Positions 13,916-50,844 are shown, numbered from the stretch's first letter. The stretch: DNA of 64,000 nt from Gammaproteobacteria bacterium (GCA_029864095.1 JAOTUB010000001.1:19082-83081); one strand, 5' to 3'. A program made the numbers and translations. Notes: generated from the letters alone by a model not told the origin.

Positions 13916-13945
13916 GACCTGATGCAAATCAAATTGCATCAGGTC
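13916..13945. terminator. Hairpin between convergent genes (possible bidirectional terminator)
   Basis: 12-bp perfect stem GACCTGATGCAA / TTGCATCAGGTC (13916..13927, 13934..13945) with a 6-nt loop. No clear T-run. Confidence 0.4.
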
Positions 13946-14501
13946 CGGTTGACACTAATAGCCTTCATAAGGCGGAAGGTTTTTTCGGGCGGCATGAAAC
14001 GGCTCGCCCCGGATGTTACTGCACAATACGGCATGCCAACAAAATGATAGATATCCCTTAGGATGTAGCCGCTTGCTTTGCCGCTCGTGGCGTCGGCGAC
14101 GCCTGTTTGACCCGTTGCCCTATTCGCGTGTACAGCTCGCCGGATGACGAGGCCACCGCGACGTTCCCGATTCGCAACACGCCCTGGGCAGCTCAGGTCC
14201 CTGGCGGCGCCGACAATAGCAATGTCATCTGCCATGTCATCGGTGAGCAACCCCAGTCCGGCGAGTGTCAGTCGCCCCGCGTCCATCGAAACCAACGCCC
14301 TCGAGTGGTGCCGTTGTGCAGCACGATCGCACGCATGTACAGCCGCTCGTGGTCGTACTTACCGGTTGCCGGCGCGACCGGTCTGCCCGGGGTAATATCA
14401 ACCTTGGCGGCACCGGCCCGCAACGGACCGGCGGCCGCAAGCGCGGCCGCCCAGCACAGCGCGGCGGCGATAACAGTCATATTGCCGGCAATTCTTTTCA
14501 C
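13939..14501 (-). pseudogene. Decayed N-terminal remnant of a ceramidase-N-domain family gene
   Basis: ORF 14268..14501 encodes a signal peptide plus GPLRAGAAKVDITPG...YDHERLYMRAIVLHNGTTR, matching the N-termini of the four intact paralogs (e.g. GPLKVGAARVDIS...YAHEWLYIRAIVLDNGETK). Similarity continues in another frame (ORF 13939..14295: SMDAGRLT...DDMADDIAIVGAARDL) and is then lost. The HTHS zinc motif and the remaining roughly 340 codons are absent. Confidence 0.7.
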
Positions 14502-14516
14502 AGTCCGTTCCTGTCA

Positions 14517-15737
14517 TTATTTGAATAGCAATTGGGCCATGTCGGCGAGCGAATGGCGCCACACTTTCCATTCATGCACTCCCGGGTAGGTCTTCGCGAC
14601 GAAGTCGATGTCGCGGACTTTCAGATCGGCCCAGGTGTCCCGCAGCGCGTCGATGCGTGGATCTTCCGTACCGCAAGTGAAAAACAGGAGATCGAGTTTC
14701 TCGTTGACAGCCTTGGGATCATCCAGGAATCCCGGAATGATGCTGTCGAATACTTCCGACCCATATGGCCCGCCATCTCTGCCGCGGAATTGTCCGGAGC
14801 TCAGCAAACCGATATTCGCGAAGACGTCGAGGCGATTGAATGCAACACTGGCGGTGATGGAAGCGCCCATCGAGAGGCCGGCCAGTGCCCGATTCTCGCG
14901 GCCCGGCAACGTGCGGAAGTTTTTTTCGATATACGGCACAAGGTCGCCGACGATATCCTGGATGTTGTTCTCACGAATCGGAGCACCTGGGCTACCGCCG
15001 CTGCCTACGCCCGGCGGTGGCGCCGTGCGCGGGCCGGCGAGGTCGAGCGATGCGAGTTCGCCCCAATACGCGTTCGGCATAACGACGATCATCGGCCTGG
15101 CTTTGCCCTGAGCGATCAGGTTGTCCATGATCACGTTGGCAATGCCCATTGTGGGCCAGGCATCTTCGTCGCCGCCGCTGCCATGCAACAGATACAACAC
15201 CGGGTATTCGATGTCCGAATTTTCATAGCCGGGAGGCGTATACACAAACGCCCGTTTCGACGTCTTCATGACGGTCGACGGCACCCACACCGAATGTACC
15301 GTTCCGTGTGGCACCTGTTGCGGCTGCAGTAGAGCAGCGCTCTCGTTGCCCAATACCAGCACGGTGTTCATGAATCCGACGCCGTCACGCTGCACATTAT
15401 AGTTATTCGGGTCCAGCGTCCTAACGCCATTGACTAGGAAGGTGTAAGCCCACAGGTCCGGATCGAGCGAAGCAGTCGTCACCGTCCAGAGGCCAGAGTC
15501 GTCCTTATTCATCACAACACCGCGGCCGCCTTCCCAGTTTCCCTGTACATTGACATCGGTCGCATGCGGTGCAAGCAGGCGAAATGTTACCCGGCCGTCC
15601 CGCTGCACCTGGGGCGAAACGATCTTTTCCGTCCGCGCCTCGCCACCGCCTGTGCCGACCGTGGTGGTCGGCGATTCCTGCGCGAATGCTGTGCTACTCA
15701 ACAGCAGTAACGCTACGATCATCGATAAATTTTTCAT
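14517..15737 (-). CDS. Secreted esterase (putative-esterase / enterochelin-esterase-like family) with N-terminal Ig-like domain
   Basis: ATG 15737 preceded by GGAG. Signal [22 protein letters not shown]-set-like N-domain ([20 protein letters not shown]). Hydrolase motifs [16 protein letters not shown], nucleophile GLSMGA, C-terminal PGVHEW. Confidence 0.85.
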
Positions 15738-48140: not shown

Positions 48141-49493
48141 CTACTGCTGCTTAGTGGATTCGATCATCCTGTTCATCAGGGTGGTGTAACCACCGTTAAT
48201 GGAGCCAACCGCGTAGCGGCGGTTGTTGGTGTGCCAACCATCATGAATCAGCGCATAGTCATCCGGCTGGTAAGATGTAATTGCCTTAACACCCTCTACA
48301 TGAGTGTATTCGTCCGGAATACGAACCTGGTTTGAGACCAGTGTATGTTCGACCAGGGAATGCTCCTGCATGTAAACGCCGATCGAGTTGAACAGCTCTC
48401 CCGCGGTGCCCACCAACGCGATGTTACCGATGCGCAGCATTCTCAACTGGATGCGTACGTCCTGCTGGCCTTCGGTATACGGCGGGAGCGTGCCGTCGCC
48501 CGTGGCGTAGCTGATCCGCGCCTCGCTGGTGACGGTTTGAATATTTGACAGAGCTGTCAATACATCAGCGAACTGTATCTTGCCGTAGAACTCCACAAGC
48601 TCGACAACTGCACGACCCATCATCTGGATTTCCTGCTCGCCAGTTTCCGGGTTCGGCGTGAAGTACTCGTTGGAAATGATGGGATTCTGATCGCCCGCTG
48701 CTCCCGGGATCCAATTGGCCACTGCTCCCTCGAATTTGGCTTCCAGATGTCCGGAAACAGCGCCGGCTATGTCGGCGCTGACGCCGTTGTCGTTGCCGTC
48801 GAACCTGTTGGCATACATGGTGGTGTTGTGCACGGCGTAGTGCACGATGAACGCTATCGGTTTGCCTTGCAGGTCGCTAAAGCGGATGACCGACAATGTC
48901 TTGTCGGACGGGCCCGTAGGATTGTAACCCTGAGCACCTTTGGTCGTGCCATCTTCGAGTTCGTAAAATCGCTGACGGTTGGTATTGATGTAGCTCTCGG
49001 AGTAGCCAATACCCACAGTGGCAGGTCTCATTTTGGCAATCGCCTCATCGGCGGCCGCGATCATCTGCTCATAGACGTACTTGTTGTAGAGTTCTGTGGC
49101 GGGTACGTTCGGATCGATTTTGGTGGTTGGTGATGAGTGGCCGTGGGTACCGCCGTAATAAATCGCATCGGTCGGCACTCCGGTGTGCCGTGAAAGCCCT
49201 GGCAGGAAGGTTTCCGGCGACGGCGCGTCGCCTGCTTCGAAGGTGACTACGAGAGCTGGAGTTTCGCCATTGCCGACAGCTATCACCCGCACATGAATGG
49301 GATCGATCACTCCCACCAATTGGCCCAATTGGATTCGTGACGTTCCGGAGAGGGGAAACCACTCCTGCATTGGCGTAGTGTCACGAACCGCGGCGCCAAC
49401 AAACAGCTGCTGCTCCGCCGCATGCGCCATCGCGTTGGGGATCGCCACGATCACGATCAAACAGGCTGCTCGGATCGTCTGGATTTTTCTCAT
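48141..49493 (-). CDS. Secreted ceramidase-N-domain family hydrolase (divergent paralog 4)
   Basis: ATG 49493 gives the signal MRKIQTIRAACLIVIVAIPNAMAHA. Motifs GAAVRDTTP, IHVRVIAVGNGE, GGTHGHSS, YAVHNTTM, GAAGDQNP. The track ORF start (49637) adds 48 non-signal residues. Confidence 0.75.
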   Translation of the reverse strand: MRKIQTIRAACLIVIVAIPNAMAHAAEQQLFVGAAVRDTTPMQEWFPLSGTSRIQLGQLVGVIDPIHVRVIAVGNGETPALVVTFEAGDAPSPETFLPGLSRHTGVPTDAIYYGGTHGHSSPTTKIDPNVPATELYNKYVYEQMIAAADEAIAKMRPATVGIGYSESYINTNRQRFYELEDGTTKGAQGYNPTGPSDKTLSVIRFSDLQGKPIAFIVHYAVHNTTMYANRFDGNDNGVSADIAGAVSGHLEAKFEGAVANWIPGAAGDQNPIISNEYFTPNPETGEQEIQMMGRAVVELVEFYGKIQFADVLTALSNIQTVTSEARISYATGDGTLPPYTEGQQDVRIQLRMLRIGNIALVGTAGELFNSIGVYMQEHSLVEHTLVSNQVRIPDEYTHVEGVKAITSYQPDDYALIHDGWHTNNRRYAVGSINGGYTTLMNRMIESTKQQ

Positions 49494-49662
49494 GATTCGC
49501 GTCTCATCTGGACAAATTGCTATTTGGCGGGCATCCATTGTGAATCGCTTGCTCGTAATAGGCTGCTGTGCGTTCGGTGTTGCCTGTTGCACGACAGGCG
49601 TTGCCCCTGACTCGAGGGAGCATCGGCCGAAAATCACTCACGCTGCCGGACAGTAGTGCCGG

Positions 49663-50844
49663 TCACTCGGACGACGCCGTGTCCTCCAAATGCTGCCATA
49701 ACTGCGGAAGAAAACGAGCGTGAAGTTGATGCCTCCATGTGATCCACTCATGTCCGGCCCCACCGACATAATACTCGTGGTCGATGTTGTGCTCTTCTAG
49801 AGTATTGTGTAAGCGTTCTCCGTATCGCTCTGCCGGCTCAAGAGTACCCAGCCCGGTAAACAACAAATCGATTTTGTCATTTGTTGCGGGGTCGGCCAGG
49901 AACTCTTCGAAAGACTCGTCAGACTCAACGCGTCCTGCGCTGAAAAGCCCGAAAGAACCAAAGGTATCCAAATTCCGGAAACCGATATGCCGCGACTGGC
50001 GACCTCCCATTGATAATCCCGCTAACGCCCTGCCCCTCGGACTTTTTATCGTATTGTATTTGAACTCCACCAGCGGAAGAATGTGCTGAAATATTTCTTT
50101 TGAAGTCAGATCAAAAGTGTATTTAACATGATCCGGTGTATTGCGATGCAATAGCTGGTTGTTAGGGAATACAATAATTGTCGGTTTGGCTTTGCCTTCT
50201 GCAAGAAGGTTATCCATTATGAAGTTCGCTCTACCGTCATCTAGCCATCCTGATGCAAGTTCGCCGCTGCCGCCCATCAGAATCAGCATCGGATATGCAA
50301 CATTCGGATCATATCCCGGTGGCGTATAGACGAATAATTCACGTTCACCGTTCGTAACTTCTGAGCTATAGATGTGGCGCGTTACTGTTCCGTGAGGAAC
50401 GGGTTTCGCATCGTAATAGCTCGGACCGTCCCCGTGCACGGTTACCATACTTTTAGCCGGTTGCAGGCCAAAGAGAATGAACGAATTATCATGGTCCGCA
50501 ACTATCGCGCCATCAATATTCAACCGGTAGTAGTAGATGTCTGGGTCGTAAGGGCCCGCAGTAACTTCCCAGATGCCATCGTTATTCTTGGCCATTGGTA
50601 TTGGATCTGATGAAGAAAACGGGAAGCCAATGACGCTAACACTGGCTGCTTTCGGCGCGACCAGTTTGAAAGTAACGGTTTTGTCATCGTTGACAACCGG
50701 CGTAATCGTTCCTGTTCCATAACGCAACGGAAGATTTTCCGTATTCTTGTGCGGCGCCCAGTCAAGATTGACCTGCGCCTGCTGGGCAAAGACGAGCCCG
50801 GCCAAGAATAAGAAAACAATTGCGAATATTAGTCGTTGCATCAA
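49663..50844 (-). CDS. Secreted esterase with N-terminal Ig-like domain (paralog of 14517..15737)
   Basis: Signal MMQRLIFAIVFLFLAGLVFAQQ. N-domain TVTFKLVAPKAASVSVIG. Motifs PMLILMGGSGELASGW, GLSMGG, GAGHEW. Noticeably more AT-rich than its neighbours. Confidence 0.85.
   Translation of the reverse strand: MMQRLIFAIVFLFLAGLVFAQQAQVNLDWAPHKNTENLPLRYGTGTITPVVNDDKTVTFKLVAPKAASVSVIGFPFSSSDPIPMAKNNDGIWEVTAGPYDPDIYYYRLNIDGAIVADHDNSFILFGLQPAKSMVTVHGDGPSYYDAKPVPHGTVTRHIYSSEVTNGERELFVYTPPGYDPNVAYPMLILMGGSGELASGWLDDGRANFIMDNLLAEGKAKPTIIVFPNNQLLHRNTPDHVKYTFDLTSKEIFQHILPLVEFKYNTIKSPRGRALAGLSMGGRQSRHIGFRNLDTFGSFGLFSAGRVESDESFEEFLADPATNDKIDLLFTGLGTLEPAERYGERLHNTLEEHNIDHEYYVGGAGHEWITWRHQLHARFLPQLWQHLEDTASSE

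Follow-up and report, generated by a model that had tools for sequence, protein, structure and literature searches.

Three diverged loci of esterase and ceramidase-fold hydrolase genes in an uncultured gammaproteobacterium: a candidate catabolic cassette

Results

Esterase genes, ceramidase-fold genes and gene remnants at three loci

We analysed a 64,000-nucleotide stretch of a sediment metagenome contig assigned to a Gammaproteobacteria bacterium (GCA_029864095.1; JAOTUB010000001.1:19082-83081), hereafter the window, in which genes for CE1-type esterases lie beside genes for short proteins with a ceramidase-type catalytic domain (PF04734-type, here called Cer) at three places. A first-pass annotation had described these as three occurrences of a single esterase plus ceramidase-like module, all on the minus strand. 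Listing of the open reading frames (ORFs) and Pfam scans of the window found all nine features of the three loci at the places given and on that strand: two intact CE1/CBM48 esterases, four intact Cer proteins of ~455 amino acids (aa) and two gene remnants.

Locus 1 begins with Est1 (14517..15737), an intact CE1-type esterase of 406 aa with an N-terminal CBM48-like domain and predicted export (Pfam Esterase 2.5e-18, plus CBM_48). Its ORF reaches 32 codons further, to an ATG at 15833, and there is no signal peptide at that start; the signal peptide begins at Met 15737, which is also the start used in the public contig gene call (406 aa). Est1 is followed by a composite remnant, stub 1. Stub 1a (14094..14480) is a mosaic in two frames of a fifth Cer paralog ('Cer4'), recognised by tblastn against the second Cer gene of a related metagenome-assembled genome (MAG; locus L096), and stub 1b (13981..14118), also identified by tblastn, is apparently an internal fragment (aa ~50-89) of a PF00135-like type-B carboxylesterase in the frame of ORF 13939-14295. 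The earlier account of this locus was thus right about the intact esterase but not about its neighbour, which is a four-piece Cer mosaic with a carboxylesterase fragment and not a simple N-terminal piece of one gene.

Locus 2 holds three intact Cer genes, Cer2c (26239..27612, 457 aa, Pfam 1.5e-07), Cer2b (24854..26239, Pfam 1.5e-10; 461 aa from the ATG at 26239, as in the public gene call) and Cer2a (23431..24831, 466 aa, Pfam Ceramidase_alk 3.2e-11, predicted export), the start of Cer2b overlapping the stop codon of Cer2c. They are followed by stub 2 (22797..23416), a 5'-truncated and frameshifted CE1 esterase remnant (Pfam Esterase 1.8e-07 at profile positions 101-147). At locus 3, Est3 (49663..50844), an intact CE1/CBM48 esterase of 393 aa with predicted export (Pfam Esterase 2.1e-17, plus CBM_48), lies 169 bp upstream of Cer3 (48141..49493), an intact 450-aa member of a distant Cer subfamily (Pfam 2e-09). 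The intact genes reported for loci 2 and 3 (Cer2a-c, Cer3 and Est3) are therefore confirmed by ORFs and Pfam, as is the gene order, with the esterase preceding Cer at loci 1 and 3 and the reverse at locus 2, where the three Cer genes precede the esterase remnant. Inspection by eye and a hydropathy scan also agree with the annotation's claim that the products are exported: the N-termini of the six intact proteins are charged, then hydrophobic, and then carry an AxA-like motif, a signal-peptide-like arrangement consistent with export. No intact type-B carboxylesterase was found in the window.

The closest genomic relatives of the window are uncultured Gammaproteobacteria or "proteobacterium" MAGs. 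Over the 14.6 kb compared, every base agrees with a 113.5-kb contig of JGI metagenome 3300022226, and Logan and ENA contigs from other samples also match the window.

The Cer proteins resemble the catalytic domain of neutral ceramidases

The only Pfam match of Cer2a-c and Cer3 is to PF04734, the N-terminal catalytic domain of neutral/alkaline ceramidase (E from 3e-11 to 1.5e-07), with scores of 31-43 bits, close to the gathering threshold of 32.1 (Cer2c, at 30.9 bits, falls just under it). In alignments of 59 diverse sequences that include all four proteins (A1, A5), the residues H113, H115, H215, E392 and Y424 are invariant and a GASGDQNP motif is conserved. A profile alignment to neutral ceramidases spans the THTHS, (A/V)xH and GD(x)(N/S)P motifs together with the distal Glu and Tyr, and places the conserved residues at the THTHS, VHS, AEF and SY positions of 2zws. 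By comparison with the published ceramidase structure, we take H113/H115, H215, E392 and Y424 to be the presumed zinc ligands and catalytic histidine.

Searching the PDB with the family profile (A1) returned neutral ceramidases only (4wgk at 1e-14, 2zws at 1.3e-13). The same was true of Foldseek with an AlphaFold2 (AF2) model of Cer2a (pLDDT 88.8, pTM 0.89), for which the ceramidases matched at E ~1e-24 with template modelling (TM) scores of 0.60-0.66 and 16-17% identity; matches to xanthine oxidase and gelsolin were discarded at TM < 0.2. On these grounds the Cer proteins are probably active zinc hydrolases with a ceramidase catalytic domain. In fold and in export they resemble Pseudomonas aeruginosa CDase (2ZWS/2ZXC) and human nCDase (4WGK), but differ from them in size and in setting. 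The Cer proteins end at 450-466 aa, whereas the solved ceramidases have 630-690 aa (hence target-normalised TM scores of only 0.46-0.48), and no second Pfam domain corresponding to the C-terminal Ig-like domain (Ceramidase_alk_C) was found in them. Judged by sequence, then, these enzymes are stand-alone neutral-ceramidase catalytic domains of ~455 aa without the C-terminal domain, and their genes lie among those for esterases and for sugar and aromatic catabolism rather than sphingolipid metabolism.

The family is large, with 1,991 clusters at 50% identity (E <= 1e-10). NCBIfam has no model for the Cer proteins, and we found no solved structure and no assayed member among the short stand-alone forms. 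In gut Lachnospiraceae/Eubacteriales (P0175, P0183, P0197 and others) a Cer3-like domain is fused to DUF6273 in proteins of ~770-790 aa.

The esterases are closest to feruloyl esterases

In both Est1 and Est3 a CBM48-like domain precedes the PF00756 "Esterase" domain, and both give partial matches to the NCBIfam model Xylase_Ferestase (9e-54 and 3e-46). Solved CE1 + CBM48 feruloyl esterases match Est3 at E = 1e-39 to 9e-57; the best is 7b5v (E = 9.4e-57), and 6rzo, 6mot and 8bbp are also matched. This proximity to solved feruloyl esterases points to carbohydrate- or phenolic-linked acyl groups as candidate substrates and away from lipids, the class that the first-pass annotation named first. 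The putative triad of Est1, assigned by motif in alignment A6 and not from a structure, consists of Ser289 in a GLSMG elbow, Asp359 and His388. Neither the GLSxG serine nor the C-terminal histidine varies in the 11 sequences aligned, nor in the Cer-linked CE1 esterases; at the presumed position of the catalytic acid Est3 has Glu, and 10 of the 11 have Asp.

The two-domain architecture, the GLSMG elbow and the C-terminal histidine are shared with the CE1 feruloyl/acetyl-xylan esterases with N-terminal CBM48 found in xylan polysaccharide utilisation loci (PULs) of Bacteroidota (7B5V, 6RZO, 6MOT, 6NE9, 8BBP; also XynZ, 1JJF), and some Cer-linked CE1 esterases likewise occur in SusC/SusD loci. In the window, by contrast, the partner is a ceramidase-fold hydrolase instead of xylanases or arabinofuranosidases, the acid position of Est3 is Glu, and the host is a proteobacterium without SusC/D. 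SusD is absent from the window; an adjacent SusC/SusD pair, as in a PUL, occurs only in a related locus (L068).

Carboxylesterase genes recur immediately upstream of Cer genes

The first-pass annotation had proposed that the two enzymes form a functional pair. Adjacency across genomes, whose absence the annotation had named as a ground for refutation, supports this, the signal being one-sided and strong from the Cer side. We compared 80 loci around Cer homologs on contigs chosen at one genome per species, with genes called approximately, by longest ORF. A co-oriented carboxylesterase occupied position -1 relative to Cer in 23/79 loci (29%), compared with 7% at -2, 5% at +1 and 1.7% (13/769) at three or more genes away in the same loci. 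For position -1 against three or more away the Fisher odds ratio was 24 (p = 7e-17), a p-value that overstates independence, the 80 loci being phylogenetically clustered with many Acidobacteriota MAGs among them. Pfam assigned 18 of 82 upstream neighbours to COesterase (PF00135) and seven to Esterase (PF00756), against three and two of 80 downstream. All adjacent esterases (27/27) were co-oriented with Cer, with a median intergenic gap of 19 bp, and when Cer proteins were collapsed at 70% identity the adjacency was kept in 9/31 clusters.

The carriers are Acidobacteriota, Bacteroidota, Actinomycetota (Kribbella), Alphaproteobacteria (Rhizobium, Agrobacterium, Mangrovicoccus) and Gammaproteobacteria MAGs. 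As partners of Cer, esterases of at least four alpha/beta-hydrolase families are interchangeable: PF00135, PF00756, the PHB-depolymerase type and the EstA-Ig type. Elsewhere the commonest partners of Cer are the type-B carboxylesterases (PF00135, the former CAZy family CE10), of which several (L104, L106 and others) start with RR-containing, Tat-like signals. Type-B carboxylesterases often take lipophilic esters. The fumonisin esterase FumD belongs to this type, and in the known FumD cluster the second enzyme is an aminotransferase, not a ceramidase-fold hydrolase. Intact multi-gene versions also occur, in the orders Est-COE-Cer (L106), Cer-Est-Cer-Cer (L100) and Est-Est-COE-Cer (L148), where COE denotes a COesterase gene, and in a Bryobacterales MAG both genes of the pair have been duplicated together, giving Est-Cer-Est-Cer on one strand (L020, 8785-14068).

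The flanks of the esterase-linked loci are dominated by MFS/sugar transporters, TonB-type outer-membrane proteins, aldose 1-epimerase (10/80 downstream neighbours) and enolase-superfamily enzymes. In a Bacteroidales locus the order is SusC-SusD-CE1-Cer-MBL-x-Cer (MBL, metallo-beta-lactamase fold). The pAt plasmid of A. tumefaciens has an esterase of the PHB-depolymerase family, Cer and a multicopper oxidase, with tannase and PadR nearby; that of A. vitis has a carboxylesterase and then Cer, with a catechol-type dioxygenase and maleylacetate reductase nearby. On an Alteromonas plasmid Cer stands beside bglX, a sugar transporter and a carboxylesterase, and acyl-CoA dehydrogenase and thiolase genes lie ~4 kb off. 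In the fungi T. reesei and A. niger, secreted ceramidase-family genes are co-induced with carbohydrate-active enzymes on straw (PMC3750697).

A candidate two-step deacylation cassette

We consider it likely that the three loci are deeply diverged copies of one catabolic cassette, found in many phyla, which combines one or more exported serine carboxylesterases with one or more short exported zinc hydrolases. In the mechanism we envisage, the esterase would remove O-linked acyl groups in the periplasm or outside the cell and the Cer enzyme would remove an N-linked acyl group, both acting on a single nutrient, imported or bound at the surface, or on nutrients closely akin to one another, and the products would enter through the TonB-dependent receptors and MFS/sugar transporters whose genes are frequent on its flanks. 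Of the loci in the window, locus 3 (Est3-Cer3) would represent the cassette whole; locus 1 would have kept its CE1 esterase beside deletion remnants of Cer and of a type-B carboxylesterase, and locus 2 its three Cer genes next to a CE1 esterase that has lost its 5' part.

The broader proposal, that short Cer proteins and interchangeable exported carboxylesterases constitute a two-step O-/N-deacylation cassette in at least five bacterial classes that scavenges natural products bearing both ester and amide bonds, such as plant phenolamides and feruloylated conjugates, is put forward tentatively, at somewhat under even chances. As to the class of substrate, we have a weak preference, itself rather doubtful, for acyl conjugates derived from plants or detritus, above all esters and amides of hydroxycinnamic or other phenolic acids, which may be glycosylated.

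Several points weigh against a shared cassette or limit how it should be read. The putative amidase activity and the presumed common substrate of the pair are deduced from fold, conserved residues and gene order, and the phenolic conjugates are suggested by a few plasmid contexts and by the nearest solved relatives of the esterases. About 70% of the Cer-centred loci have no adjacent esterase; the approximate gene calls and the phylogenetic clustering of these loci, mentioned above, count here too. In 80 metagenome loci around relatives of Est1 a Cer gene was present in four and a type-B carboxylesterase in 16, the intact composites L106, L100 and L148 among them, and Cer neighbours only ~2-5% of the Est1-like esterases. 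Seen from Cer, the link is thus strong; seen from the esterases, it is diluted, as would be expected for an abundant esterase family. Finally, the closest relatives of Cer2a (80%) and Cer3 (68%) are not beside a CE1 esterase: none was found next to Cer3 orthologs in the 68% relatives.

Of the alternatives, the one that survives best takes the cassette to be lipid-deacylating, with Cer as the N-deacylases of lipids that carry both ester and amide bonds (ceramides and other sphingolipids, ornithine and other aminolipids, or lipid A) and the esterases as lipases for the O-linked chains. The only structural and sequence relatives of Cer are ceramide-hydrolysing neutral ceramidases, their zinc and catalytic residues are conserved in it, and the lipophilic esters often taken by type-B carboxylesterases, its commonest partners, would fit. 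We nevertheless regard this as unlikely. Est1 and Est3, with their CBM48-like domain, are nearest to carbohydrate-active feruloyl esterases; identity to real ceramidases is as low as 16-17% and the C-terminal domain is absent; and the genes around the cassette (SusC/SusD, bglX, sugar transporters, aldose epimerase, tannase, multicopper oxidase) are not those of fatty-acid beta-oxidation, the Alteromonas plasmid excepted.

It is less probable still that there is no common pathway, exported hydrolases simply clustering in nutrient-scavenging islands so that the three juxtapositions in the window are coincidental. That the partner is missing for ~70% of Cer genes and for almost all CE1 esterases, and that close relatives of Cer3 and Cer2a have no esterase beside them, would be expected in such a case. 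But the sharp peak of esterases at -1 and its fall on either side, the operon-like gaps and common orientation of every adjacent esterase, the recurrence of the pairing across at least five bacterial classes and with esterases from four families, unrelated or distantly related, and the duplication of the pair as a unit in the Bryobacterales MAG all argue against chance. We retain the cassette as the preferred reading.

In the literature searched we found no description of the esterase-Cer pairing, in line with the first-pass annotation, which knew of no pathway that joins the two families, and nothing relevant on a bacterial phenolamide amidase. Both enzymes belong to known gene families; their conserved pairing, in which the esterase is interchangeable, appears to be undescribed in the searchable literature. 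If the pairing does reflect one pathway, it would offer a concrete clue to the function of a large and uncharacterised branch of the neutral-ceramidase fold, whose members are common on Agrobacterium plasmids and in bacteria of soil, peat, sediment and the gut, and would point to a missing amide-cleaving step alongside feruloyl and carboxyl esterases in the breakdown of acylated plant and detrital compounds. Cultured carriers (Agrobacterium pAt plasmids, as in A. tumefaciens strain 186 and A. vitis T60/94, Kribbella such as K. catacumbae, Paenibacillus such as sp. LHD-117, and Rhizobium) allow a direct test.

The three loci are old relative to one another

The first-pass annotation had further read the loci as occurrences of one module in reciprocal decay, whose redundant copies the genome appeared to be sorting out. 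The gene sets are indeed present at all three places, but they are not close copies: identity is 31% between Est1 and Est3 and ~26% between Cer3 and Cer2a-c, and loci 1, 2 and 3 have no mutual nucleotide similarity. Orthologs elsewhere are far closer (72-80% for Cer2a, 68-83% for Cer3 and 64-68% for Est1). By sequence the three loci are ancient paralogs or separately acquired cassettes. Within locus 2, Cer2b and Cer2c are 65% identical to one another and Cer2a is 49-52% identical to both; in relatives (L005, L095) Cer2b and Cer2c both correspond, at 60-68%, to a single Cer gene upstream of the Cer2a ortholog. This is the sole step that looks like a lineage-specific tandem duplication.

Recent duplication of the module followed by reciprocal loss is accordingly very improbable, and the picture of a genome sorting out redundant copies was not upheld. 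The losses are complementary, Cer having gone at locus 1 and the esterase at locus 2, and Cer2b/Cer2c do resemble a recent tandem pair; yet protein identity between loci of only 26-31% with no similarity in DNA, and the greater closeness of each copy to genes of other genomes, including that of the two longest stub 1 pieces (73-87%) to a fourth paralog carried by a related MAG, do not fit a recent origin. An intact ancestor of locus 2 was sought in the closest relative (L095, 80%) and rejected, the gene after the Cer2a ortholog there encoding a solute-binding-like protein and not an esterase. In the relative with 83% identity to Cer3, the Cer gene is followed by an EstA_Ig-like esterase instead of a CE1 esterase.

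The remnants are deletion pseudogenes

Stub 1 was measured by tblastn against the intact second Cer gene of the related MAG (L096/L007), and four minus-strand pieces could be placed: Cer aa 18-66 at 14447-14301 (73% identity over 49 aa), aa 68-89 at 14298-14233 in another frame (50% over 22 aa), aa 324-345 at 14244-14179 (59% over 22 aa) and aa 376-405 at 14183-14094 (87% over 30 aa). Stub 1a thus retains the signal peptide and aa ~13-89, 324-345 and 376-405, and has lost aa ~90-323, the catalytic core with the THTHS, H215 and GDQNP motifs. The surviving pieces resemble the genes of the relative about as closely as intact orthologs do, which suggests, from few residues, that the gene was inactivated fairly recently.

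The 3' part of ORF 13939-14295 (14100-13981) is not Cer and matches a type-B carboxylesterase, with 65% identity over 40 aa to the carboxylesterase of L104 (E = 3e-11 against the whole window). When three PF00135 neighbours were used as tblastn queries, their aa ~50-99 matched stub 1b at 46-65% (E = 3e-11 and 8e-08), and the N-terminal motif of stub 1b matches eight carboxylesterases. Pfam gave no match to this 118-aa ORF, so the PF00135 label comes from tblastn. The Cer pieces and the carboxylesterase fragment beside Est1 imply that locus 1 once held three enzyme genes.

Stub 2 begins 14 bp past the stop codon of Cer2a. The annotation had it as a 5'-truncated, frameshifted esterase, and this was borne out: ~290 N-terminal residues (the CBM48 domain and the first third of the hydrolase domain) are missing, the GLSRGG nucleophile elbow is kept, there is a frameshift near 23030, and the C-terminal piece retains GHE. 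It is 41% identical to Est1 over 54 aa (Est1 residues 294-347) and 43-52% identical to other CE1 esterases over ~100 aa, its nearest intact relatives including the Cer-adjacent CE1 esterases of two Bacteroidota MAGs (L079, L082).

That intact genes only look like remnants through errors of sequencing or assembly, for which nothing speaks beyond the general risk in metagenome assemblies, can be set aside as most improbable, the defects being deletions of ~700-850 bp with several changes of frame rather than single indels and their sequence being 100% identical and gapless in contigs of 3-5 samples. Over the stub 2 region this identity extends to contigs of four samples, and for stub 1 to 711 nt in three samples and to 352 nt in two more; such agreement between independently assembled samples rules out assembly error and shows that the frameshifts are real, a point on which the annotation had advised a check. 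The stubs are pseudogenes of an ordinary kind, made by deletion and now fixed in the population, and not the decay of recent duplicates, and the partial deletion of two of the window's copies, as ordinary gene loss, carries little weight in itself. A single inversion or insertion across ~13981-23416 might have made both breakpoints, an idea prompted by L096/L007, in which the intact counterpart of stub 1 is convergent to the Cer2a ortholog; the boundaries, where no direct or inverted repeats above chance were present, speak neither for it nor against it.

Neighbouring genes in the window

Directly upstream of Est1 and on the same strand lies a two-subunit molybdenum hydroxylase (15919-18836, minus strand; Fer2/Fer2_2 small and MoCoBD large subunit), presumably IorAB-like. 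In a related MAG a molybdenum hydroxylase pair (L085, 3008-5877) and then an MBL-fold gene are divergent from the Cer3 ortholog, and this enzyme may be a further recurrent neighbour of Cer. An MBL-fold gene also adjoins stub 2 and Cer2a in the window (21765-22784, plus strand); its best NCBIfam matches are SoxH-related 'quinoprotein relay system zinc metallohydrolase' models, and such genes are found beside or near Cer in other loci (L068, 11432-12517; L085, 1970-2998; L087, 10768-11853). Just downstream of Cer3 is a DUF3500 gene (46553-47704, minus strand), and a DUF3500 protein flanks another esterase-Cer locus as well.

Near locus 1, on the opposite strand, are a TonB-dependent receptor (8800-11271, plus strand) and an MFS sugar transporter (11391-12884). 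In their vicinity are genes of the Cupin_8 and tryptophan-halogenase families (1611-4166, plus strand), a combination typical of proteobacterial TonB-dependent carbohydrate-uptake loci. Between loci 2 and 3, a minus-strand run of genes at 28154-41799 resembles a Bat/aerotolerance-like operon (MoxR AAA_3 ATPase, DUF58, BatA/VWA, TPR/peptidase_MA and DUF4159) and also holds a 1114-aa ORF with a weak match to DUF4175. At 28-30 kb the window has an unusually strong AT skew (-0.22), with 64% GC.

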